Shown: positions 2,840 through 55,987 of the stretch, piece by piece
Layout of the letters: the number at the start of each line of letters is the position of its first letter
Numbering within the stretch: the first letter of the stretch is position 1
NCBI GenBank assembly: GCA_963714055.1
Contig: OY970227.1
Location: 2,933,330-2,997,329 of the forward strand
DNA length: 64,000 nucleotides
Source of the DNA: an uncultured Acidimicrobiia bacterium
Lineage (GTDB): Bacteria; Actinomycetota; Acidimicrobiia; Spongiisociales; UBA5794
Direction of reading: 5' to 3'
The notes under the pieces: generated by a model
Seen by the model: the letters and a program-made list of their open reading frames with translations, nothing else
Database searches by the model: none
What the model was told of the DNA's origin: nothing
Made by a program: the position numbers and the translations under genes

Positions 2840-3493
2840 TTACACGGCCCGCAGTTGCCGTCCTCCGGAGTCCGCCCAGGACTGCCGGAGCGAATCGGTG
2901 AGCCGGTCGAGCGACCGCACCTGGGTGACGATCCCCGCTACCGCCAGCCCCAGGTACAGGGCGTACCACCACCAGTCGTCGTCGAGCCGTTGCGTGGTGG
3001 CCAGGGTCATCTGGTCGAGGTCGACGACACCGAACAGCAGCATCGCACCGGTGACGATGGTGCCTGCCCCGGCGAAGGCACTCAGCACGACCAGGATCAC
3101 CATCGGCATGTTGCCGGCGAGGGCGAGAACGGCGAGGACGACGGCGAGGGCGATGCCGGCGAGCACGATCACCCACGACCAGGTGACCCCGAGTGCCACC
3201 AGCAGATGACTGGCCAGGGCGAACCCGATGGCGGCCATCGCCAGGACCACGGCCACCTCGTAGAACAAATAGGCCAGCGCCCCGAAGAGGATGGCGAAGG
3301 CGAACCCGACCAGCCACCCGGTCGCGGTCGACAGGAAGCCCTCGTCCCAGAACGAGGCGACCAGGCCGGCTCCGAACACGAACCCGGCGAAGGCTCCCCA
3401 GATGGGGATGATGATCCGCATCATCAGCCACCCGCCGAAGCAGAAGGCGGCCCCGATCGCGATGGCGAGCAGCCCGACGACGATGTCTTCCAC
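2840..3493 (-). CDS. Integral membrane protein (DUF4203/TM7S3-like multi-pass)
   Basis: 217 aa, highly hydrophobic with 6-7 predicted TM helices (MEDIVVGLLAIAIGAAFCFGGWLMMRIIIPIWGAFAGFVFGAGLV...). Confidence 0.5.
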   Translation of the reverse strand: MEDIVVGLLAIAIGAAFCFGGWLMMRIIIPIWGAFAGFVFGAGLVASFWDEGFLSTATGWLVGFAFAILFGALAYLFYEVAVVLAMAAIGFALASHLLVALGVTWSWVIVLAGIALAVVLAVLALAGNMPMVILVVLSAFAGAGTIVTGAMLLFGVVDLDQMTLATTQRLDDDWWWYALYLGLAVAGIVTQVRSLDRLTDSLRQSWADSGGRQLRAV

Positions 3494-3585
3494 GCCCGTT
3501 CCCTCCCGGGTTGATCACCGGATGCTAGAGACGCCAGGCGATCCGTCCGAGGATGGCTCCGGCGTCGTCGGCCGCCGGGCGAGGC

Positions 3586-4416
3586 TCACGGGTACACCAG
3601 CCGGTCGACCACCGCGCCCTCGGCGGTGAGGAGGAGGGCGGTGTCGCCGCCGTTGGACCACACCGGGGATTCGGCACACCAGAACCGCTCGCCCTGCCCC
3701 AGCTCCCCACATCCCGAGAAGACGGTGATCGAGGCGCCCGGCTCGAGCACGTCCTCTTCCTGGAACTCGAACCGGTTGGCGGTCGACTCGTCTCGCAGCA
3801 CCCAGCCACCGAGCGCCACCATGCCGTCGCTCCGGTTGTCGATCGTGACGTGCTCCCCGTTGGGCGACCGGTCGTCCGGCCCCTCGGGGTCGGCGACCAG
3901 GTCGGAGATCTCTACGCCGTCCGGTGCCGGCCCGCACACGGAGGTACCCCACATCCCCAGCCGTCCCTCCCAGGCGGCGTCGCCGGCGGCCAGCAGCTCG
4001 TCCTGGCCGTCCCGGCCGGTGTGGATGACCATGGCGTACCCGTCCTCCACCGCCTCGAGGTTGAGCCACCGAGGCCCCACCCAGACGTCGCGCAGCAGCC
4101 GGTCGAAGTCGTCGGTGTCGCTCTCGTTGCCCACCGGGACCAGCGTCACCTCGGCCCCGGCGGCGTCGGTCATCCACCGGTGCGCCTCGGCCCCGAAGCA
4201 CTCGTCCTGCTCGGGGGCATTGACCCCGGCGAGGCGGACCTCCCGCTCGCCGGTGTCGGTGTCGACCAGCATCGAATCCCCGTCGAACACGGTGACCACG
4301 CTCGCCGCGGCGCCGGCGGGAGCGGAGCCCCCGGCGGTGGCGTCCGTGGCGTTTCCCGAGACGGCGCACCCGCCGATGACCACGAGCGCGAGCAGGGCGG
4401 GCGACGCTCTGGGCAT
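3586..4416 (-). CDS. Secreted/lipoprotein thermonuclease (SNase-like) fused to a lamin-tail domain (LTD)
   Basis: ATG at 4416..4414. Signal/lipobox MPRASPALLALVVIGGCAVSG. SNase motifs VVTVFDGDSMLVDTDTGEREVRLAGVNAPE...RLLRDVWV...LNLEAVEDGYAMV. C-terminal LTD GEHVTIDNRSDGMVALGGWVLRDESTANRFEF...ITVFSGCG. The annotated 571-aa ORF upstream of the Met is a GC shadow. Confidence 0.7.
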   Translation of the reverse strand: MPRASPALLALVVIGGCAVSGNATDATAGGSAPAGAAASVVTVFDGDSMLVDTDTGEREVRLAGVNAPEQDECFGAEAHRWMTDAAGAEVTLVPVGNESDTDDFDRLLRDVWVGPRWLNLEAVEDGYAMVIHTGRDGQDELLAAGDAAWEGRLGMWGTSVCGPAPDGVEISDLVADPEGPDDRSPNGEHVTIDNRSDGMVALGGWVLRDESTANRFEFQEEDVLEPGASITVFSGCGELGQGERFWCAESPVWSNGGDTALLLTAEGAVVDRLVYP

Positions 4417-4473: not shown

Positions 4474-5160
4474 GTGCGGGTGCTCGTGGTGGAGGACGAA
4501 CAGGACCTGGCGGTGGCACTCGCCGCCGGGCTTCGCCGGGAGGGCTATGCCGTCGACCTGGTGGCCGAGGGCGAAGCGGCCATCACCAAGCTCGAGGTCA
4601 GCGAGTACGACCTGGTGTGCCTCGACCTCAACCTGCCCGACATGGACGGGATCGAGGTGTGCCGGTTCATCCGAGCCGGGAAGGCGGCGGGTGACGTGGA
4701 ACCGCGGGTGCTGATGCTCACCGCTCGGGATGGGCTCGACCACCGGGTCGAGGGCCTCGACGAAGGTGCCGACGACTACCTGGTGAAGCCGTTCGCCTTC
4801 CCCGAGCTGCTGGCGCGGGCACGCGCCCTCGGCCGGCGGGGGTTCGCCTCTACCGGGGCGTTGCTCGAGGTCGGTCCGTTGACGCTCGACGCCGCCCGTC
4901 GCACCGCGGCCTATGCCAACTCGCCGCTCGAGCTGACCGCCAAGGAGTTTGCCCTGCTCCGCTACTTCATGCTCCACGGCGGTGAGGTGTTGTCGGCGGA
5001 GCGGCTGCTCGAGCACGTGTGGGACGAGCACGCCGACCCGTTCACCAACACGGTGCGGGTGACCGTGTCCAACCTGCGGCGCAAGCTGCGCAGCGCCGGC
5101 GCCGACGGCGCCATCGAGACCGTCGTGGGGGCGGGCTACCGGCTCACCGGGTCGCCGTGA
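4474..5160 (+). CDS. OmpR-family response regulator (MprA-like)
   Basis: GTG start after RBS GAAGGAGG. Receiver VLVVEDEQDLAVAL...LVCLDLNLPDMDG...LMLTARD. Winged-helix LTAKEFALLRYF...GAGYRL. Confidence 0.85.
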   Translation: MRVLVVEDEQDLAVALAAGLRREGYAVDLVAEGEAAITKLEVSEYDLVCLDLNLPDMDGIEVCRFIRAGKAAGDVEPRVLMLTARDGLDHRVEGLDEGADDYLVKPFAFPELLARARALGRRGFASTGALLEVGPLTLDAARRTAAYANSPLELTAKEFALLRYFMLHGGEVLSAERLLEHVWDEHADPFTNTVRVTVSNLRRKLRSAGADGAIETVVGAGYRLTGSP

Positions 5161-6389
5161 GCCGACTCTCCGCCTTCTTCCGGTCGATCCGGTTCCGGTT
5201 GGCGCTGACGTTCTCGCTGGTGGTGTTCGGGATGGCCTTCCTGGTGATCGCCGGGGTGAACTATGCGCTGTCGCAGTCGCTGGACGACGAGACGGTGGCA
5301 CAGATGGTCGAGCTCAACTCGTTCTTCGACCCCCTGGGCAACCGGGTGATCATCGCCGAGCAGATCGAGGGTCGCCTGGTGACTCTGGAGCAGCTGGCCA
5401 ACGAGCGCGCCCTGGAGACTCTGCGCCGCTACTCGGTCATCGCCCTGCTCGGGATGTTCCCGCTGTCGATCGCCGCCGGCTGGGTGATCGCCGACCGCAC
5501 GCTGCGCCCGATCGGCCGGATCACCGAGGTGGCCAAGGAGATCCAGACCGGGGACCTCTCCGAGCGGATCGACCTCGGCGGCCCCGACGACGAGCTCAAG
5601 GAGCTGGCCGACACCTTCGACGACATGCTCGGGCGACTGGAGGCGGGGGCGGAGGCGCAGCGGCGGTTCATCCAGGACACGTCCCACGAGCTCCGCAACC
5701 CACTGGCGGTGATGGCCACCAACCTCGACGTGGTGCTGTCCGATCCGGGGGCCGATGTCGACACCTACCGGAAGACCGCCGAGGTGGTGCGGCGCACCGT
5801 CGACCGGGCGGCGCAGACGGTCGACGACCTGGTGGTGTTCGCCCGCCGTGACGTCCCCGCCTCGGTGCGTACCCAGGTGTCGTTGCGTGAGATGGCCGAG
5901 GAGGTGGTGGCCGAGTACATCGGGCCGATGGAGGAGCGCCGCATCGAGGTCGAGTACCTGGGCCAGGACGCCGTCGTCAAGGTCGACGCCGAGGGGCTGA
6001 AACGCGCATTCGGGAACCTGGTCAACAACGCGGTGCGCCTCACCCGGGAGGGATCGGTCGTCGAGATCGGGTCCGGCCGGCACCTGGGGTTCGCCTGGCT
6101 GGGGGTCGCCGACCAGGGCCCCGGGATCGACGCCAGGGACCACGAGGCGGTGTTCCAGCGCGGCTGGAGCGCCGACGGCACCAGCCTCGGAGACGAGACC
6201 CGCAACGGGCTGGGGCTGGCCATCGCCCGGCAGATCGCCAAGGCCCACGGCGGCGAGCTGACCCTTCGCTCGGTGCGGGGCGCCGGGGCCGCATTCGTCA
6301 TCTGGCTGCCGCTGGCCGCCGGCGCCGACCACGCCGACATCACCGAAGACGGCATCCACCCCGTCCACGACCCCTTCGCCGAGGTCTGA
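5157..6389 (+). CDS. Sensor histidine kinase (MprB-like; HAMP + HisKA + HATPase_c)
   Basis: GTG overlaps the regulator's stop (GTGA). Two TM segments. H-box FIQDTSHELRNPLAVM. G-boxes GLGLAIARQIAKAHGGEL. Confidence 0.8.
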   Translation: MSRLSAFFRSIRFRLALTFSLVVFGMAFLVIAGVNYALSQSLDDETVAQMVELNSFFDPLGNRVIIAEQIEGRLVTLEQLANERALETLRRYSVIALLGMFPLSIAAGWVIADRTLRPIGRITEVAKEIQTGDLSERIDLGGPDDELKELADTFDDMLGRLEAGAEAQRRFIQDTSHELRNPLAVMATNLDVVLSDPGADVDTYRKTAEVVRRTVDRAAQTVDDLVVFARRDVPASVRTQVSLREMAEEVVAEYIGPMEERRIEVEYLGQDAVVKVDAEGLKRAFGNLVNNAVRLTREGSVVEIGSGRHLGFAWLGVADQGPGIDARDHEAVFQRGWSADGTSLGDETRNGLGLAIARQIAKAHGGELTLRSVRGAGAAFVIWLPLAAGADHADITEDGIHPVHDPFAEV

Positions 6390-50042: not shown

Positions 50043-51134
50043 TCATTGCAGGATCGCCCGGCCGATGGCGTCGGCGGTCAACATCCCCAGGTACCGGTCA
50101 CCGTCGAACACCGCCGCCACGTTGGTCCGTGAGCTCACCACCACGTCGAGGGCGTCGATCAGCGATTCGTCGACTGTCAGCCACGATTGGAAGCGCCGCA
50201 ACGTCACGTTGGTGAGATCGTGCCGGTCGTCGAGCTCGGCGGCCGGGACCCAGCCGTCGAGCCGCCCGTCGCCGCCGACGGCGATCCAGTCGATCCCGTG
50301 CTCGGCCATCACCCGGCGGGCCTCCTCGACGGTCGCCGTCGCCGGAAGCACCGGACCGGGCTCGAGCGGCACGGTGCTTATCGGGAGCAGCTTGAGCCGC
50401 TTCAGACCCCGTTCCGAGCCGAGGAAGTCGACCACGAACTCGTTGGCGGGCCTTTCCAGGATGTCGGCGGGCGCGTCGTACTGCTCGAGGATGCCGCCGT
50501 TGTTCAGGATGGCGATGCGGTCACCCAGCTTGATGGCCTCGTCTATGTCGTGGGTGACCAGGACGATGGTCTTGCCCAGCCGCTCGTGGAGGTCCAGGAA
50601 CTGGTCCTGGAGCCGGCCCCTGGCGATGGGGTCGACGGCACCGAACGGCTCGTCCATCAGCATCACCTGCGGATCGGCGGCAAGCGCCCTGGCCACCCCG
50701 ACCCGCTGGCGCTGCCCGCCGGACAGCTCGGACGGGTAACGGTCTCGCATCGAGCGGTCGAGGTCGACTACGGCGAGCAGCTCGTCGACGCGGTGGTCGA
50801 TGCGCCCCTGGTCCCACCCGAGCAGCTTGGGCACCGTGGCGATGTTCTCGGCGATGGTGCGGTGCGGGAACAGACCGATCTGCTGGATGACGTAGCCGAT
50901 GCTTCGCCTCAGTTCGGACGGGCTCAGCGACGTGATGCTGCGGCCCGCCACCTCGATGGTGCCCGCGGTCGGCTCGATCAGCCGGTTGATCATCTTGAGC
51001 GTGGTCGTCTTGCCGCACCCCGATGGGCCCACCAGCACGGCGACCTCACCTTCGGCGACGTCGAGCGACAGGTCGGTGACCGCCGGGCCGTCGCCGCTCG
51101 GGTAGGACTTCGACACCCGGTCGAGCCGGATCAT
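50043..51134 (-). CDS. proV: Glycine betaine/proline ABC transporter ATP-binding protein with tandem CBS domains (OpuAA/ProV)
   Basis: ATG 51134 (MIRLDRVSKSY). Walker A GPSGCGKTT, signature LSGGQRQRV, Walker B VMLMDEPF. CBS pair at the C-terminus. Confidence 0.8.
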   Translation of the reverse strand: MIRLDRVSKSYPSGDGPAVTDLSLDVAEGEVAVLVGPSGCGKTTTLKMINRLIEPTAGTIEVAGRSITSLSPSELRRSIGYVIQQIGLFPHRTIAENIATVPKLLGWDQGRIDHRVDELLAVVDLDRSMRDRYPSELSGGQRQRVGVARALAADPQVMLMDEPFGAVDPIARGRLQDQFLDLHERLGKTIVLVTHDIDEAIKLGDRIAILNNGGILEQYDAPADILERPANEFVVDFLGSERGLKRLKLLPISTVPLEPGPVLPATATVEEARRVMAEHGIDWIAVGGDGRLDGWVPAAELDDRHDLTNVTLRRFQSWLTVDESLIDALDVVVSSRTNVAAVFDGDRYLGMLTADAIGRAILQ

Positions 51135-52001
51135 CGCGTCGGTAACGCCGCCACCTCCGGGTCGCCGCTCTGCCCACGCCGGGCACAGGTCCTTGTAGGC
51201 GCACCAGTCGCACAGCCGGCCCGGCCTGGCGGGGAACCGATCGGAGCTGATCGCCCGATCGATCGCAGCCCACAGCGCCACCAGCTGGCGCTCCATGGCG
51301 TCGAGCTGGACGTCGCTGACCGGTATCTCGTACACCGAGGGCCCGTTGAGGTACAGCAGCCGGAGCCTCGCCGGGGTGCGACCGGTGCGGTGCCGGACCA
51401 GCAGGGCGTAGATCTTGAGGGCGAAGAAGGCGGGAATGGCGTAGCGCTCGGGCGGCGCCTTCCCTGACTTGTAGTCGGTGATGACCAGCCCGTCATCGGT
51501 CTCGTCCATCCGGTCGAGGATCCCGCGTATGGTCATGTCGCCGAGCTGTTCGGCGAGCTCGAGCTCGCGGCCGGTCGGTTCGATCGTCGTCGGGTCCTCG
51601 ACTCCGAAGTAGTTGGCCAGGATCCCGAGGCTCTCGAGGCCCCAACGCCGCTCGACGGCAACGTCATCGAACAAACCGGTGAACTCGTCGTCCTTCACCT
51701 CGACCCAGGCCTGGCGGAACAGGTCGAAGAGTCGGTCTGGAGTCCGTTCGTCGGCCGGGAGGTCGAACAGGCGTTGCAGCGCCAGGTGGGCGGTCGTGCC
51801 CCGCGCCTGGGACTCGGTCGGTGGATCGGGGATGCGGTCGATCGAGCGGAACTTGTACAGCTGCGGGCAGGTCTTGAAGTCGCTGGCCCGCGACGGCGAC
51901 AGCGTCTCCAGTCCCCGGGGGGCCGCGATCTCGCCGGTGTCGATGTCGCCGGTGTCGATGTCGCCGGTGTCGATGTCGATCGCGGCCGTCGTCGTCGCCA
52001 T
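51131..52001 (-). CDS. PD-(D/E)XK (RecB/Cas4-family) nuclease, Rv2119-like; 3' end unresolved
   Basis: ATG 52001. N-terminal 15-bp x3 tandem repeat (IDTGD x3). Conserved LSPSRASDFKTCPQLYKFR. Catalytic ITDYKSGK. Cys cluster CDWCAYKDLCPAW. The ORF continues in frame into proV with no stop. A +1 frame terminates TGA at 51131 overlapping the proV ATG. Confidence 0.55.
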
Positions 52002-52135
52002 GGTGGGCACTCTACGGCGCCGGGGTGACACAAACCACATGCATGTAGTTTCGCGTCGGCGGTGCCACCGGACCACGGTGGCATGGTACGGCCGGAGTGC
52101 GTGCTCGAACGGCCGGCAGGCCCCTTAGCCGGCAC

Positions 52136-52516
52136 CGCGAAAACCAGGAAAGCGGTCGCGAAAACCAACCACCGTTCTCGTTTGACGCGCTCGGGACCCC
52201 GGGCCTACGTTGCCGCTCCCTTCGGGGCTTCGGCCCGGGAGGGGAGCACTCGGGGCGGTTCCTCGGAACCAAACCGGGACGGAGGGAGCCGCAAGGCGAC
52301 AACCGACCCGGGTCCCGGGAGCAGCGGACCGGCTTCGGCCGGGACGCAGCTCGGAGGGCTTCGGCCGGAAGAGCACGGCGGGAGAACGCCCCTTCGGGGG
52401 CACGGGCGCCGTCCCGTTATCTCTCGCTTCCGTCGGAGACGGGGTTCGCCCCGGCGCCGGCGGACAGGAGAACCCCGAGAGGGTTGAGGCTTCGGCCGAG
52501 GCTCCCTCGGGGTTTT
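52136..52516 (+). repeat. Paralogous structured intergenic element, copy C (candidate sRNA gene)
   Basis: CGCGAAAAC at 52136-52144 and 52157-52165. TTGACG 52182-52187, 18-nt spacer, TACGTT 52206-52211. About 250 nt containing C(UUCG)G hairpins (cccTTCGggg, gggcTTCGgccc, ccggcTTCGgccgg, gccccTTCGggggc). Hairpin aaccccgagagggttgaggcTTCGgccgaggctccctcggggtttt at 52471-52516. Confidence 0.45.
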
Positions 52517-52528
52517 CCGCGTCGTTCG

Positions 52529-54525
52529 TCAGCCGCCGCGCTGGTCGGGTACGTCGAGTGCGGGGTTGGCGTCGAAGAAGCCTGCGGGATGGAGCTCGAA
52601 GCCGATCTGGCGTGTTGCCGCGACCGGGTACTGCTCGAGCACGGGGTGGTGGGTGAGGCCGGTCGTGAACCACACGACGAGATCTCCGTTGGACACGTTC
52701 TCCGGGGTCGAGGTGTAGGCGGCGAGGCCGTCGCCGGCGTTTCCCTGGTTGGGGTAGTCACCGGCGGCGTACAGCTCCCGCGGCTGATACCGCGTGACCC
52801 ACAGCGGATGCTGGGCGAACGCCGCCCGTTGGAGAGGCAGGTAGTCGAGGCTGGAATAGGGGACGGTGGTGTCGGCGGCGGTGAGCATGTACGCCGTCGG
52901 TTCGCCGCGCCCGTTGTGGTTGGTGAGGCTCTCGACCATCCAGCTCCTCGCGGTGGCGGCGTTGGCGTCGCGTGACTGCTCGCCTGTCAGCACGGTGTGG
53001 TGGGCATGGAAGGCGTTGCCGGTCGGGCTGGCGACGGGCACCGTGTCGATCTCGACGAGGCGGTTGGCGGTCCCGTCGACGTCGAAGTCGATGCGGAAGT
53101 TGAAGAAGTGCTGGTGCGCCGGGGCGGCGATGTTGTCGGCGACGGTGGTCCCGAACTGGTTGCCGTCGGCGTCATCGCTGACACCCTGGTTGAGGGTCGT
53201 GCCGGTGAGCCCGACGCGTACATCGATCGTGCCGTCGAGCCGGAACGTGTAGGCGGTGGTGTAGGTGTAGTTGCCGATGTTGTTGGTCGCGGTGACGACC
53301 AACTCGCGGGCGAGGCGGGCGTCGCGCTCATAGGTCTCCGGGTCGAGGCGGTCCCACAGCACCCCGGCGTGTTGCTCGTAGATCGCCACTGCGTGCGGCA
53401 GGGCGTAGGTGCCGTCGACGCTTCCGGTGTCGGCGCCGACGGTCTCGTCGAGGAACACCGCGTTGCCGGGCACGTCGACGAGCCTGCGGAGATCCTCGGC
53501 GTACTGGCCGATGTCGTACTCGCCGACGTCGAACGCCGAACGCCACGCCCAGTTCTCGTCGGGGAGGGCGTAGGGGACGTAGATCTCGTCGAGGCCGATG
53601 CGGTAGATGATCGGGCGTACGACACCGTTGTCGAGGTAGCCGATCTGATGCAGGACGAGGCCCTCACGAGGGTTGTAGCCGACTCGGAACTGCCAGTTCT
53701 GCCACACCACCTGGCGGCCGTCGATCCGGAAGCTCGGACCGTCGGGCTGCCGGATGATGAGGTCGGTGAGACCGGTGCGCTCGTGGTGGCGTTGCCGGTG
53801 ATGGTCGTGTTGACCGGGCGGATGCCGGTGTCGACGAACTCGACGACCTGCCCGGTGTTCATGTCGACGGTGACGATCACCCCCTCGATCGGCCGGTCGT
53901 ACACGTTGGGGAGATCGCCGCGGTAGAACGACACCGCCCGCATCAGCCGGGCGCCGGGATCGCCCGGCGGGTCCGCGTCGTCACCGCGTGCCCACACGTC
54001 GAGATAGACGTCGTGCGGCTCGATCCCGCGGCGGCGCATCGCCCTGCGCCACCGCGGGTCGGCGCGCACGATCTCGTCGGCGACGGTGTACTCGGTCAAG
54101 TAGACGGCGGGCTGCACCCCGGGACGGGGATCCCACGACACGACCTGGCCGGCGGACAGGTCGACGACCACCTCGATTGCCCGGTTCGTCACCGGGTCGT
54201 ACACGTTGGCGAAGGCGCGGCGCCCGATCGGCTGTCCCGGCGACCAGGCGAGCACCGCTGCCTTGGCCGGCTCCTGCAGGGTGACGATCGGGAAGTACGC
54301 CCCTTCAGGAAACCGCGGATCCGCCTCGATCACCTCGAAGGCGGTGTCGATCTCGACCGCGGTCAGGGGGTCGAGTGGATGCGACGGTGACGCGGCGGCG
54401 CCATCCGCCGATGTCCCGTTGACCAGCCCGGTGGTGAGCAGCGTCGCCAACGCCGATGCGGCGACGAGCGGCCCGGCGGGGAACCGTCGCCGCCGGCGGG
54501 ACGCAGGAACCCCATTGGTGGACAT
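52529..54525 (-). CDS. Copper-containing amine oxidase (TAT-secreted); frameshifted
   Basis: RBS AGGAG, ATG 54525. Twin-arginine signal SRRRRRFPAGPLVAASA. N2/N3 domains, then catalytic domain (QPDGPSFRIDGRQVVWQNWQFRVGYNPREGLVLHQIGY...NIGNYTYTT...HQHFFNFRID). Frame change near 53800-53812. Confidence 0.7.
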
Positions 54526-54758
54526 CGGCAAGCTCCTCAGGTAGTGGGCGGGCACACGGCTGCTGCGGCGACCAGCCGCCTCGTCGCGTGGTGTCGCTCC
54601 AGGTTCATCGGGTCCTCCTGGTTCCTCGAGATCACGACGTGTGCGGAGCTTGGCTCGGCGCTGTTCCCGTTGTCACGGGGCGGGGCTCCCTTCTCTGTCG
54701 GGAAGAACACTAGGAGAGCCGGACACCGCGGAATGAACAGGGGCGCCCGCGGTAGGGT

Positions 54759-54885
54759 CGCGAAATTCAGGGACAAAGCGCGAAAACGATCTACCGATCT
54801 GATTTGCGCCGTCGCCGAACCACGCGTATGTTCACTCTCGAACCCCGAGGGGGTGGCGGCTTCGGCCGAGACTCTCTCGGGGTTC
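54759..54885 (+). repeat. Paralogous intergenic element, short copy A (repeats and promoter-like box fused directly to the hairpin)
   Basis: CGCGAAAT 54759-54766 and CGCGAAAAC 54779-54787. TTGCGC 54804-54809, 17-nt spacer, TATGTT 54827-54832. Hairpin aaccccgagggggtggcggcTTCGgccgagactctctcggggtt at 54841-54885. Confidence 0.4.
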
Positions 54886-54975
54886 ACTCGCGTCCCCACG
54901 ACTTCTCCTCCCCGAATGGTGCCCGATGCGGCAGGAGTGGCCTCAGGGGAATCCCGCTGGACGATCTCCGTGGCT

Positions 54976-55330
54976 CGCGAAACATCGGGACGAGACGCGA
55001 AAACGATGTAGCGATCTCACTTGACGGCCCTGGGTCGCCCGACCTACGTTGCCCCCGTGCCGCAGCGGGAAACCGAGGTGGCACCGGGTGAGGGCCTTCG
55101 GGCGCTGACCCACCGGGACCGCCTTCGGGCGGACCCACCGTCCGTTCCGGACGCCACCCTTCGGGGTGGGTTCTCCCCTTCGGGGGAGAGGACGCCGGCC
55201 TTCGGGTCGGCGACGGTCGGGACAGACCGCCGAACGGGCTTCGGCCCGGGAGGCATCGGCCAGCCTTCGGGCTGACCGAAGGGAAAACCCCGAGAGGGTG
55301 GAGGCTTCGGCCGATACTCCCTCGGGGTTT
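54976..55330 (+). repeat. Paralogous structured intergenic element, copy B (candidate sRNA or 5' leader of the downstream gene)
   Basis: CGCGAAAC 54976-54983 and CGCGAAAAC 54996-55004. TTGACG 55021-55026, 18-nt spacer, TACGTT 55045-55050. At least seven consecutive C(UUCG)G hairpins between 55090 and 55275 (ccgccTTCGggcgg, cacccTTCGgggtg, ctccccTTCGggggag, ccggccTTCGggtcgg, cgggcTTCGgcccg, cagccTTCGggctg). Hairpin aaaaccccgagagggtggaggcTTCGgccgatactccctcggggttt at 55284-55330, 27 nt before the next ATG. Confidence 0.45.
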
Positions 55331-55356
55331 CCCGCGTCGGGCAGCAGCCTCCGTAT

Positions 55357-55987
55357 GATGCCGGCCATGACCTTCTCCGAACGCAACCTCACCGAGGGCG
55401 AGCAGATCATCACGAAGTTCCGCCCCCACTGGCGGTTGCTCTTCGTCCCGGTCGGCTGGATCCTGCTGGGGCTCGTCGCCCTGTGGTTGGTCTACGCGGT
55501 GATCCCATGGGAGAACACCTCGTTCCAGCTGGTGATGACCGGTCTGATCCTCCTCGCCCTCATCCCGTTGACCATCGCGCCGCTCATCACGTGGTGGTTC
55601 ACCACCTACATCCTGACCACCGAGCGTCTGGTCACCCGAAGCGGGATGATCGCCAGGCGCGGTGTCGAGATACCGCTCGAGAACATCAACAACGTGCTGT
55701 TCCACCAAGGCCCGATCGAGCGGATCCTGAAGTCCGGCGACCTGCTCGTGGAGTCGGCCGGCGAGACCGGCCAGAGCCGATTCCGTAGCATCCCGCAGCC
55801 CGAAGAGTTCCAGACATTGCTGTACAAGACTCGCGAGGCTCGCTCGATGGAGCTCGCCCAACCGGCGGCGGTGGTGGCCCCCGATGTGACCGCCCAGCTC
55901 GACCGGCTCGCCAAGCTCCATCGGGACGGCGTCCTCACCGACGCCGAGTTCCAGGAGAAGAAGCAGAAGCTGCTCGACCAGATCTGA
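55357..55987 (+). CDS. Membrane protein with bPH_2 (YdbS/YdbT-like PH) domain and C-terminal SHOCT domain
   Basis: Two TM helices then a PH-like region. C-terminus DRLAKLHRDGVLTDAEFQEKKQKLL is a SHOCT motif. Start ambiguous (55357, 55360 or 55375); no clear SD. Confidence 0.6.

Follow-up and report, generated by a model that had tools for sequence, protein, structure and literature searches.

The stretch of DNA considered here is a window of 64,000 nucleotides (nt) on contig OY970227.1 (assembly GCA_963714055.1, positions 2,933,330 to 2,997,329 of the forward strand), from an uncultured bacterium of the Acidimicrobiia. It carries three intergenic elements on the + strand, named copies C, A and B in their order along the window, each of which joins a pair of direct-repeat boxes and a promoter-like sequence to a common terminal hairpin. 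The three elements are probably separate genes for highly structured non-coding RNAs (ncRNAs) with a common expression frame, and belong to a family that extends across the Acidimicrobiia. The best reading of the comparative evidence is that these RNAs are independently transcribed, co-regulated and stable, and that they share a 3′ hairpin module. This reading builds on the observed anatomy, conservation, covariation and synteny of the elements. A sequence-only reading of the same DNA had suggested co-regulated RNA genes from the combination of promoter, structured transcript and closing hairpin. The suggestion is strengthened by the joint conservation of promoter and hairpin in hundreds of loci, by covarying stems, by insertions and deletions (indels) that break reading frames and by the favoured folding of the + strand.

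Copy C begins with two boxes of the type CGCGAAAAC (52136-52144 and 52157-52165, a 21-bp period). These are followed by a −35 hexamer TTGACG (52182-52187), an 18-nt spacer and a −10 hexamer TACGTT (52206-52211), with a start predicted near 52218. The boxes of copy A (54759-54765 and 54779-54787) have a 20-bp period and precede TTGCGC (54804-54809), a 17-nt spacer and TATGTT (54827-54832). Copy B also has a 20-bp box period (54976-54982 and 54996-55004), with TTGACG at 55021-55026, an 18-nt spacer, TACGTT at 55045-55050 and a start predicted near 55057. Rereading of positions 51800-55700 agrees with the ordered parts as first described: boxes of the form CGCGAAA(A)C at a 20-21 bp period, the −35 exactly 16 nt past the second box in all three copies, and 17-18 nt from there to TACGTT or TATGTT. 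Comparison with the related locus L240 gives a footprint in which boxes, −35 and −10 are kept and the spacers have diverged. In copy C, each box is identical at 7 of 7 positions and each hexamer at 6 of 6, with 9 of 14 positions kept in the spacer between the boxes; in copy B, boxes, −35 and −10 are fully conserved. As would be expected of independent ncRNA genes, the elements appear to have their own promoters, footprinted by conservation and with correct spacing of −35 and −10. The paired-box pattern occurs three times in the 64-kb window and not once in 100 shuffles, and tolerating up to 2 mismatches adds just one further window match, at chance level. The single CGCGAAAAC box is not rare, with 4 window matches against 10.6 expected at up to one mismatch. 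The significance rests on the paired arrangement and not on the single box.

The wider family was delimited by two scans. A hairpin-pattern scan with one genome per species returned at least 119 stretches, and an independent promoter-pattern scan of metagenomes, free of hairpin ascertainment, returned at least 120. Family counts from both are counts among the matches listed, copies per genome and taxonomic range are lower bounds, and taxon labels are as submitted. With very different RNA bodies among these stretches, the “small family” of three first proposed proves too narrow. Of 132 unique promoters, 78 have a box period of 20 bp and 53 one of 21 bp; in 130, the −35 lies 18 nt from the second CGCGAAA; and the promoter spacer measures 17 nt in 89 and 18 nt in 43. 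TTGACG and TAC[T/G/A/C]TT are the most frequent hexamers, and some members retain the proximal box only. The box centres lie near −62 and −82 from the predicted start, as in upstream activator sites and unlike an operator that overlaps the core promoter. The boxes had been termed an operator, a label that fits poorly with a site about 60 and 80 bp 5′ of the predicted start and held rigidly to the −35. The nearby regulators that had been put forward as box binders (an MprA-like response regulator, a LysR protein and RamB) are not conserved neighbours of the family and so find no support in that role. A TetR gene at a second family site was also considered and rejected as the source of the box regulator, as it runs convergently to the RNA and TetR proteins typically recognise palindromes.

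The terminal hairpin of copy C spans 52473-52512 on the + strand and is followed by a U-tract (52513-52516) and a CCGCG tail to 52522; it is supported by pattern match, fold and family covariation. In copy B, the hairpin (55288-55327, 39 of 40 positions identical in L240) is followed by UUU (55328-55330) and a CCCGCGU tail to 55337. Together with the hairpin of copy A (54843-54882), these are the only three matches in the window to the 40-nt hairpin pattern, where 0 are expected, so that the common terminal hairpin described earlier is borne out. BLASTN within the 64-kb window found no copies beyond C, A and B. When 103 distinct hairpins are aligned, pairing reaches 98.2% and 7 pairs covary, a result that none of 500 shuffles and no slid control attains. 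Two features lie in columns left free by the search pattern: a G-U wobble at columns 19/43, present in 102 of the 103 sequences, and an opposing A and C at columns 17/45, which becomes A-U in a subgroup. In distant members recovered by the promoter scan, changes in the lower stem are compensated. Most often 3 U residues follow the stem, and about 23% of members have none; a CGCG lies no more than 14 nt past the stem in about 60% of members, with the consensus GGGGUUUCUCGCGU. Ordinary terminators conserve structure and not sequence; judged from the alignment, the sequence constraint on this hairpin exceeds what a terminator would need.

Promoter and hairpin are found together from whichever side the family is approached. 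At loci found by the hairpin, all 135 of 135 strict promoter matches are followed by the hairpin 130-750 nt on (117 canonical, 18 slight variants). Of 197 hairpins taken as starting points, 165 have a two-box promoter and 11 stand at a locus edge. On inspection, 20 of the remaining 21 have at least one CGCGAAA box upstream, and the last one (L063) is a chance match. In the promoter-only scan, 113 of 151 promoters lead to a canonical hairpin and 17 are cut by a contig end. Among the other 21, about 15 have covarying hairpin variants, e.g., CCCCGGAGGGG...CUCAGCCGGGG; in five, the promoter is followed, upstream of dnaB, by a short C-rich RNA that has a different terminator, and one apparently precedes a protein-coding gene. 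The listed matches are nearly all labelled Acidimicrobiia or Actinomycetota where labelled. Seventeen genome-scan stretches are submitter-labelled Acidobacteriota, yet their neighbouring genes are the same, and one Planctomycetales match is a chance one. The check that had been proposed on the element, its conservation and stem covariation in other genomes, has a positive result: the element recurs in Acidimicrobiia assemblies and its stems covary. The outcome that had been named as refuting it, a mobile remnant or degraded coding sequence without hairpin conservation, is not what the homology scans returned.

Copy A is a gene for the hairpin only. Its stem begins at 54843, 10 nt past the end of the −10 (54832), and the direct joining of promoter to hairpin noted at first is thereby confirmed. 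The hairpin and its UUCACUCGCG tail occupy 54843..54894 on the + strand, with a fold of −38.1 kcal/mol, and the predicted RNA is about 45-55 nt long. In L240, a promoter is also fused straight to the hairpin, immediately 3′ of the C orthologue of that locus. Between the two loci, the hairpin is identical at 40 of 40 positions, the tail at 11 of 12, the boxes at 7 of 7 and 7 of 7, and the −10 at 6 of 6. The box spacer agrees at 4 of 13 positions, the promoter spacer at 9 of 17 and the upstream flank at 8 of 40, and the flanks are unalignable. Because the matching parts stand amid diverged spacers and flanks, copy A is best seen as a conserved island and not as a decayed remnant. On this conservation, the hairpin alone appears to be a selected product.

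The RNA bodies of copies C and B lie between promoter and hairpin on the + strand. The body of C (52218..52472, about 255 nt) is made of short hairpins that are mostly tetraloop-capped, and that of B (55057..55287) opens with a 5′ hairpin with a GAAA loop, followed by an array of C(UUCG)G hairpins. The predicted folds, which as minimum-free-energy folds of G+C-rich RNA are approximate, reach −188.4 kcal/mol (z −6.1) for B and −199.3 kcal/mol (z −5.4) for C. The reverse complements reach −170.9 kcal/mol (z −4.4) and −162.8 kcal/mol (z −2.0), respectively, and the + strand is thus more stable by 17 kcal/mol in B and 36 kcal/mol in C. The fold of B holds 8 C(UUCG)G hairpins and one G(GAAA)C, and that of C holds 5 C(UUCG)G hairpins together with CCUCGG, CGCAAG and GUUCGC. 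This accords with the earlier count of at least seven UUCG stems in B and about five in C.

Synteny with the window, at about 82% nucleotide identity, is found in three related loci: the metagenome contig L146 (the same contig as L243) and two further assemblies, L241 and L242. When C is compared with its L146 orthologue, 88 of the 103 predicted pairs are unchanged, 8 are compensatory, 7 are one-sided and 0 are broken, and 27% of unpaired positions differ versus 11% of paired ones. The four-genome consensus fold of C has 99 pairs, 6 of them compensatory; that of B has 91 pairs with 3 compensatory and 1 pair broken in one sequence. Structure backed by compensatory changes on one strand, a further mark of an independent ncRNA gene, is present in C, in B and in the terminal hairpin. 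The indels between C and its L146 orthologue are of 1-3 nt. The B orthologue (L243 ~5750-5780, the same as L146 4290-4320) is longer than window B by a hairpin unit of about 25 nt, CCCACCGGGAACACCUUCGGGUGGA, which duplicates the adjacent unit in tandem. On this evidence, the hairpin arrays expand and shrink by gain and loss of hairpin units. When the bodies are clustered, B is joined only by its L146 orthologue and C stays alone, so that neither can be assigned to a deeply conserved body class.

The eight open reading frames (ORFs) that overlap the elements have no Pfam match. A protein-coding reading is excluded by the frame-breaking orthologue indels and by this absence of Pfam matches in the overlapping ORFs. 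Public gene calls over the RNA genes consist of hypothetical proteins of 224-380 amino acids (aa) without a Pfam domain (L241-L243 4791-5897 on the − strand; L240 6815-7525 on the − strand; L244-L246 ~3206-3952 on the + strand). These are likely to be systematic false ORFs in Acidimicrobiia annotations.

Within the family, the bodies range from 0 nt (copy A) to about 700 nt and fall into unrelated classes, and the transcripts of the unbiased promoter-scan set are about 84-777 nt long, with 38 nt counted for copy A. Four body classes are deeply conserved: one of ~135 nt with the loop GGGGGCCCGCUUUCCCGG, one of ~145 nt, one of ~220 nt and one of 350-450 nt with the cores ACGGGGAUCCUUCGGGAUCGUCGAGCGG and GGAGUUGGGUCCCCGGCCCGAC. 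The body classes outside these are lineage-specific. Among 230 unique RNAs there are 2039 predicted hairpins, of which 83% are tetraloops (646 UUCG, 752 GNRA). RNA length follows hairpin number closely (r = 0.96, about 34 nt per hairpin). Pairing involves about 69% of nucleotides, and UUCG and GNRA loops replace one another. The linkers, made up of 49% A and 31% G, are rich in purines, and a conserved single-stranded seed was not found in them. Most family RNAs, B included, open with a GNRA-capped hairpin.

Several arrangements of the genes have been observed. Tandem arrays of five RNA genes occur in L012 (4048-5690), L053 (1706-3259) and L061 (3882-5529), where units of about 150 and 380 nt alternate, each with its own box promoter and hairpin; the L012 array adjoins the PD-(D/E)XK gene. 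In L029, L083 and L114 (e.g., L083 3732-4399), two RNA genes stand back to back on opposite strands, and their CGCGAAA boxes share one short divergent control region. In L013 (~4800-5050), the last RNA gene of an array is followed at once by long runs of the heptanucleotide microsatellites (TCCAGTC)n and (GTTGCTC)n. In L132, L147, L156, L218 and L225 (e.g., L147 267-430), a two-box promoter leads into a short C-rich RNA, CUUCCCCGCUGGCAGAAUUGGCUUCCCCGCC, which has a different terminator, lies directly upstream of dnaB and is followed by another CGCGAAA box. This RNA is reminiscent of the C-rich loops of 6C RNA; it has no Rfam match at the gathering threshold and was not recognised as 6C.

The chromosomal position of the genes is also conserved. 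ORF clustering at 119 loci defines a site with a divergent PD-(D/E)XK nuclease gene, 1-5 RNA genes, a co-oriented bPH_2-SHOCT gene and often an AMP-dependent ligase, and most family members stand between such a nuclease and such a bPH_2-SHOCT gene. Nuclease and RNA locus are syntenic in 45 loci. A second family site adjoins an LLM-type oxidoreductase, the TetR gene and RmuC. The window has the order of the first site: nuclease (−), C, A, B, bPH_2 (+). The nuclease gene (50043..52004, − strand, identified by Pfam) is divergent from C and is the conserved left-hand neighbour. In the window, an open frame (50043-52076, − strand) joins the PD-(D/E)XK domain (aa 34-275) to an OpuAA-like ABC ATPase with a CBS domain. 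The two are genes overlapping by 4 nt in L241-L243 and separate genes in L240; the window frame is either a genuine fusion or the product of a frame error. At its 5′ end (51927-51990), the nuclease ORF holds 3-4 copies of a 15-nt tandem repeat, GTCGATGTCGCCGGT, which encodes DIDTG repeats.

Downstream of B, the bPH_2-SHOCT membrane protein gene (55358..55987, + strand; Pfam PF03703 and PF09851) could also start at 55355, and hence begins 24-27 nt past the end of the B U-tract at 55330. The distance of 27 nt first reported fits the 55358 start, which gives a 209-aa product with 99% identity in a public assembly. The L240 protein is 90% identical to that of the window. In 60 of 114 bPH_2 genes, the end of a family hairpin lies 78-170 nt 5′ of the conserved FRPHW motif, about 15-105 nt before the start codon. 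Because the hairpin sits so close 5′ of the bPH_2 start, B-type RNA and bPH_2 are probably linked by read-through. In L240 (5609-7477), the segment of B and bPH_2 is inverted relative to C and A, which are arranged in tandem on the opposite strand and run convergently towards bPH_2. This inversion implies that the RNA genes stay together through local rearrangement.

Between C and A lies a frameshifted copper amine oxidase gene (52529..54555, − strand). It is read in two overlapping ORFs whose Pfam domains complement each other, the enzyme domain falling in 52529-53710 and the N2/N3 domains in 52987-54555, which places the frameshift between ~53710 and ~53814. The gene is probably a pseudogene. 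It is absent at the same site in L146/L243, L241, L242 and L240, and is therefore either a recent insertion here or was lost elsewhere; it is outside the RNA system.

Taken as independent RNA genes, the elements would most likely work as follows. One or two CGCGAAA boxes, about 62 and 82 bp 5′ of the start, would bind a putative activator that contacts RNA polymerase at the housekeeping-type promoter next to them (a TTGAC-like −35, a 17-18 nt spacer and a TACNTT −10). An activator is proposed because the distance from box to −35 is rigid and the promoter is almost exclusive to these RNA genes. The predicted transcript would usually start with a GNRA-capped hairpin, continue as a lineage-specific body of autonomous hairpins with stable tetraloop caps and end at the sequence-conserved 40-nt hairpin with its short U-tract. 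The terminal hairpin is probably also the common functional module of the family, which might, for instance, bind a shared protein or stabilise the RNA, since its sequence is conserved, its wobble is near-invariant and a hairpin-only gene exists. The RNAs may act through their folded shape or by binding protein rather than by pairing with mRNA, given that loop types differ among members, that linkers are short and purine-rich and that unpaired positions evolve faster than paired ones. At copy B, leaky termination would probably allow the B promoter to supply the bPH_2-SHOCT gene as well.

A number of points weigh against this reading. The evidence is comparative throughout, and start sites are predicted from the −10 alone. 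The −10 agrees with TATAAT at only 3 of 6 positions, and a consensus scanner with E. coli-type criteria calls neither the promoters nor the terminators of the elements; we read this as a limit of such criteria rather than as counter-evidence. The lower-stem conservation in the genome set is partly imposed by the search pattern. The short U-tract makes termination efficiency uncertain, and the conserved CGCG beyond it is not explained by a plain terminator, so that the RNA could extend further or a DNA-level site could lie there. Among the conserved neighbours of family loci, no candidate was found for a box-binding regulator or a hairpin-binding protein, and no response regulator adjoins the conserved GAF-HisKA histidine kinase found 3-5 kb away. 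The tight coupling of B-type RNA with bPH_2 could mean that B is mainly a leader.

This last point leads to an alternative in which B and the RNAs at the same position are mainly a long cis-acting 5′ leader of the bPH_2-SHOCT operon (often with acyl-CoA synthetase), the terminal hairpin being a regulated attenuator and the other copies duplicates without that role. We regard this as unlikely, although the same-strand hairpins before bPH_2 genes leave little room for a separate promoter, the gap in the window is equally short, and the order RNA, bPH_2, AMP-ligase recurs in most loci. The same promoter and hairpin also frame RNAs without a co-oriented downstream gene: C is convergent on another gene, class II RNAs are convergent on the TetR gene, and tandem arrays have up to five units. 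The hairpin-only gene A is conserved, and the body differs wholly between lineages at the same position with no aptamer-like core conserved. No segment competing with the terminator arms was seen in B, for which no systematic search was made. The downstream gene is conserved for B-type RNAs and not for C, A and many others. The suggestion of a leader or attenuator made by the sequence-only reading keeps some support for B only. It is likewise unlikely that the copies are trans-acting sibling small RNAs (sRNAs) that pair with mRNA through short complementary seeds, as in sRNA families controlled by response regulators. Independent genes with a shared regulated promoter and their own closing hairpin, present as several and sometimes tandem paralogues per genome, are what such a family would display, and short classes carry a conserved loop such as GGCCCGCUUUCCC. 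Against this, unpaired positions in C have changed faster than paired ones and no conserved single-stranded seed can be seen there, most of the loops in these largely paired RNAs are generic UUCG or GNRA caps whose type varies by member, the linkers are short and purine-rich, and lengths of up to about 780 nt are atypical for seed-type sRNAs.

It is very unlikely that the RNA beside bPH_2 is the Acidimicrobiia counterpart of Ms1 or 6S RNA, i.e., an abundant, polymerase-binding RNA. B-type RNAs do measure 250-450 nt, with 5′ and 3′ hairpins, and adjoin a PH-domain gene. The conserved neighbours here are PDDEXK_1, bPH_2-SHOCT and AMP-ligase, without the HAD-IB hydrolase that defines the Ms1 locus, and B and C fold as strings of short hairpins and not as a long imperfect duplex with a central bubble. 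There is no Rfam similarity, and the Acidimicrobiia are outside the coverage of the Ms1 survey (PMC9130861). Least likely of all, and barely credible, is that the elements are repetitive or mobile DNA resembling miniature inverted-repeat transposable elements or repetitive extragenic palindromes, or decayed coding sequence, with hairpins that act at the DNA level. Boxes of the CGCGAAAA type mark the 5′ boundary of the unit, and TTT(T)CGCG, the reverse complement of the box, follows the hairpin in 28 of 192 genome-set members; several copies occur per genome, with tandem arrays, and copy A adjoins a gene absent from relatives. The exact inverted box is nevertheless confined to some members, and the chromosomal position is syntenic across the recovered loci, which argues for vertical inheritance. 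The hairpin pattern has 0 matches in 2.9 million viral contigs, and there is no transposase among the conserved neighbours, target-site duplications not having been looked for. The covariation runs through G-U pairs and is strand-specific, and UUCG and GNRA loops are RNA stability motifs. Decayed coding sequence is excluded on the same grounds as a protein-coding one.

If the elements are independent RNA genes, a further possibility can tentatively be entertained, with more doubt than confidence: that the family is a dedicated RNA regulatory system of the Acidimicrobiia, built from parts not seen elsewhere. One CGCGAAA-binding activator would control almost only RNA genes, and the 40-nt hairpin would be a handle for one RNA-binding protein (a chaperone or a sequestered regulator). 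Copy A would then be a minimal decoy, and the variable bodies would tune stability or recruit partners. Such a system would be an independently arisen functional analogue of Gac/Rsm or Hfq-sRNA networks. To our knowledge, Acidimicrobiia are not known to use Hfq, ProQ or CsrA, and a literature search on RNAs and RNA regulators of the class found nothing relevant. Acidimicrobiia are abundant in soil, fresh water, the sea and wastewater, and barely cultured. The RNA gene family is sharply defined and easy to search by its rigid promoter signature and its hairpin signature. It also offers two experimental handles, a DNA motif with which to fish out the regulator and a 40-nt RNA hairpin with which to fish out the partner protein. 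The shared frame of promoter and hairpin, together with the hairpin-only member, bears on the origin of new ncRNAs through the swapping of bodies inside a fixed expression frame. As family loci are now annotated as nothing or as false hypothetical proteins, masking them would clear recurrent spurious ORFs from Acidimicrobiia genomes.

The elements had been described as matching no known RNA family, and searches of Rfam 15 agree. At the gathering threshold there are zero matches in the window, 18 related and 5 further loci, bar one tRNA elsewhere. A relaxed search of the window, the related loci and class representatives gave far sub-threshold matches only (E at least 0.065). One of these, to mir-598, is false and is produced by the DIDTG-coding repeat at the 5′ end of the nuclease ORF. 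Tandem Repeats Finder reported nothing in the elements. An array of clustered regularly interspaced short palindromic repeats (CRISPR) or a tandem repeat was rejected, as there are no regularly spaced near-identical repeats and the hairpin units are not sequence repeats. A sponge of the Csr/Rsm type was also rejected: only 15 of the 2039 predicted loops are GGAA, and GGA or GGAA is common only in linkers.

The terminal hairpin resembles intrinsic terminators in being a G+C-rich stem-loop that precedes U residues where a transcription unit would end, and the U-tract of C and B can pair with a purine run upstream of it. The copy A hairpin is very stable, at −38 kcal/mol; the U run is mostly of 3 nt in the family, and the E. 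coli-type scanner does not call the hairpin. The terminal hairpin differs from intrinsic terminators in that stem sequence, internal A-C mismatch and G-U wobble are all conserved across the recovered loci, the U-tract is usually of 3 nt and a CGCG follows. Ms1 is an RNA of about 300 nt with extra short hairpins at its 5′ and 3′ ends; its defining neighbour is a HAD-IB hydrolase, and the annotation phrases for its flanking genes in some Actinobacteria include “PH” (PMC9130861). The family described here shares with it the phylum Actinomycetota, the size of B-type RNAs, the extra hairpins at both ends, a conserved chromosomal position and the “PH” phrase. Unlike Ms1 or 6S RNA, it lacks the HAD-hydrolase neighbour, the rod-with-bubble fold and any sequence or covariance-model similarity, and it is a family of several classes and not one gene.

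The closest working analogues are sibling sRNA families under one response regulator and hairpin-array sponge RNAs. The former include the CiaR-dependent csRNAs of Streptococcus, the LisR-dependent LhrC1-5 of Listeria and the GacA-dependent RsmX/Y/Z of Pseudomonas. These are also paralogous genes, some in tandem, each with its own promoter, upstream regulator site and closing hairpin. In the present family, by contrast, the closing hairpin is conserved in sequence family-wide, a hairpin-only gene exists, and the bodies run from 0 to about 700 nt in unrelated classes. The Rsm/Csr RNAs likewise have fast-evolving bodies with variable numbers of hairpins; the loops here are generic UUCG/GNRA caps instead of the GGA motifs of those sponges. 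The large ornate bacterial RNAs OLE, ROOL, GOLLD and raiA offer another comparison, with their many GNRA-capped helices, adenosine-rich junctions, lineage-limited distribution and a function that is not obvious from context. All of them have Rfam models with one conserved core each, whereas the RNAs described here have no Rfam match, and it is their promoter and 3′ hairpin that are conserved while the cores differ. It is unusual for the members of a family to have promoter and 3′ hairpin in common while their bodies are unrelated and no core is shared; a conserved member that consists of the hairpin only is unusual as well.

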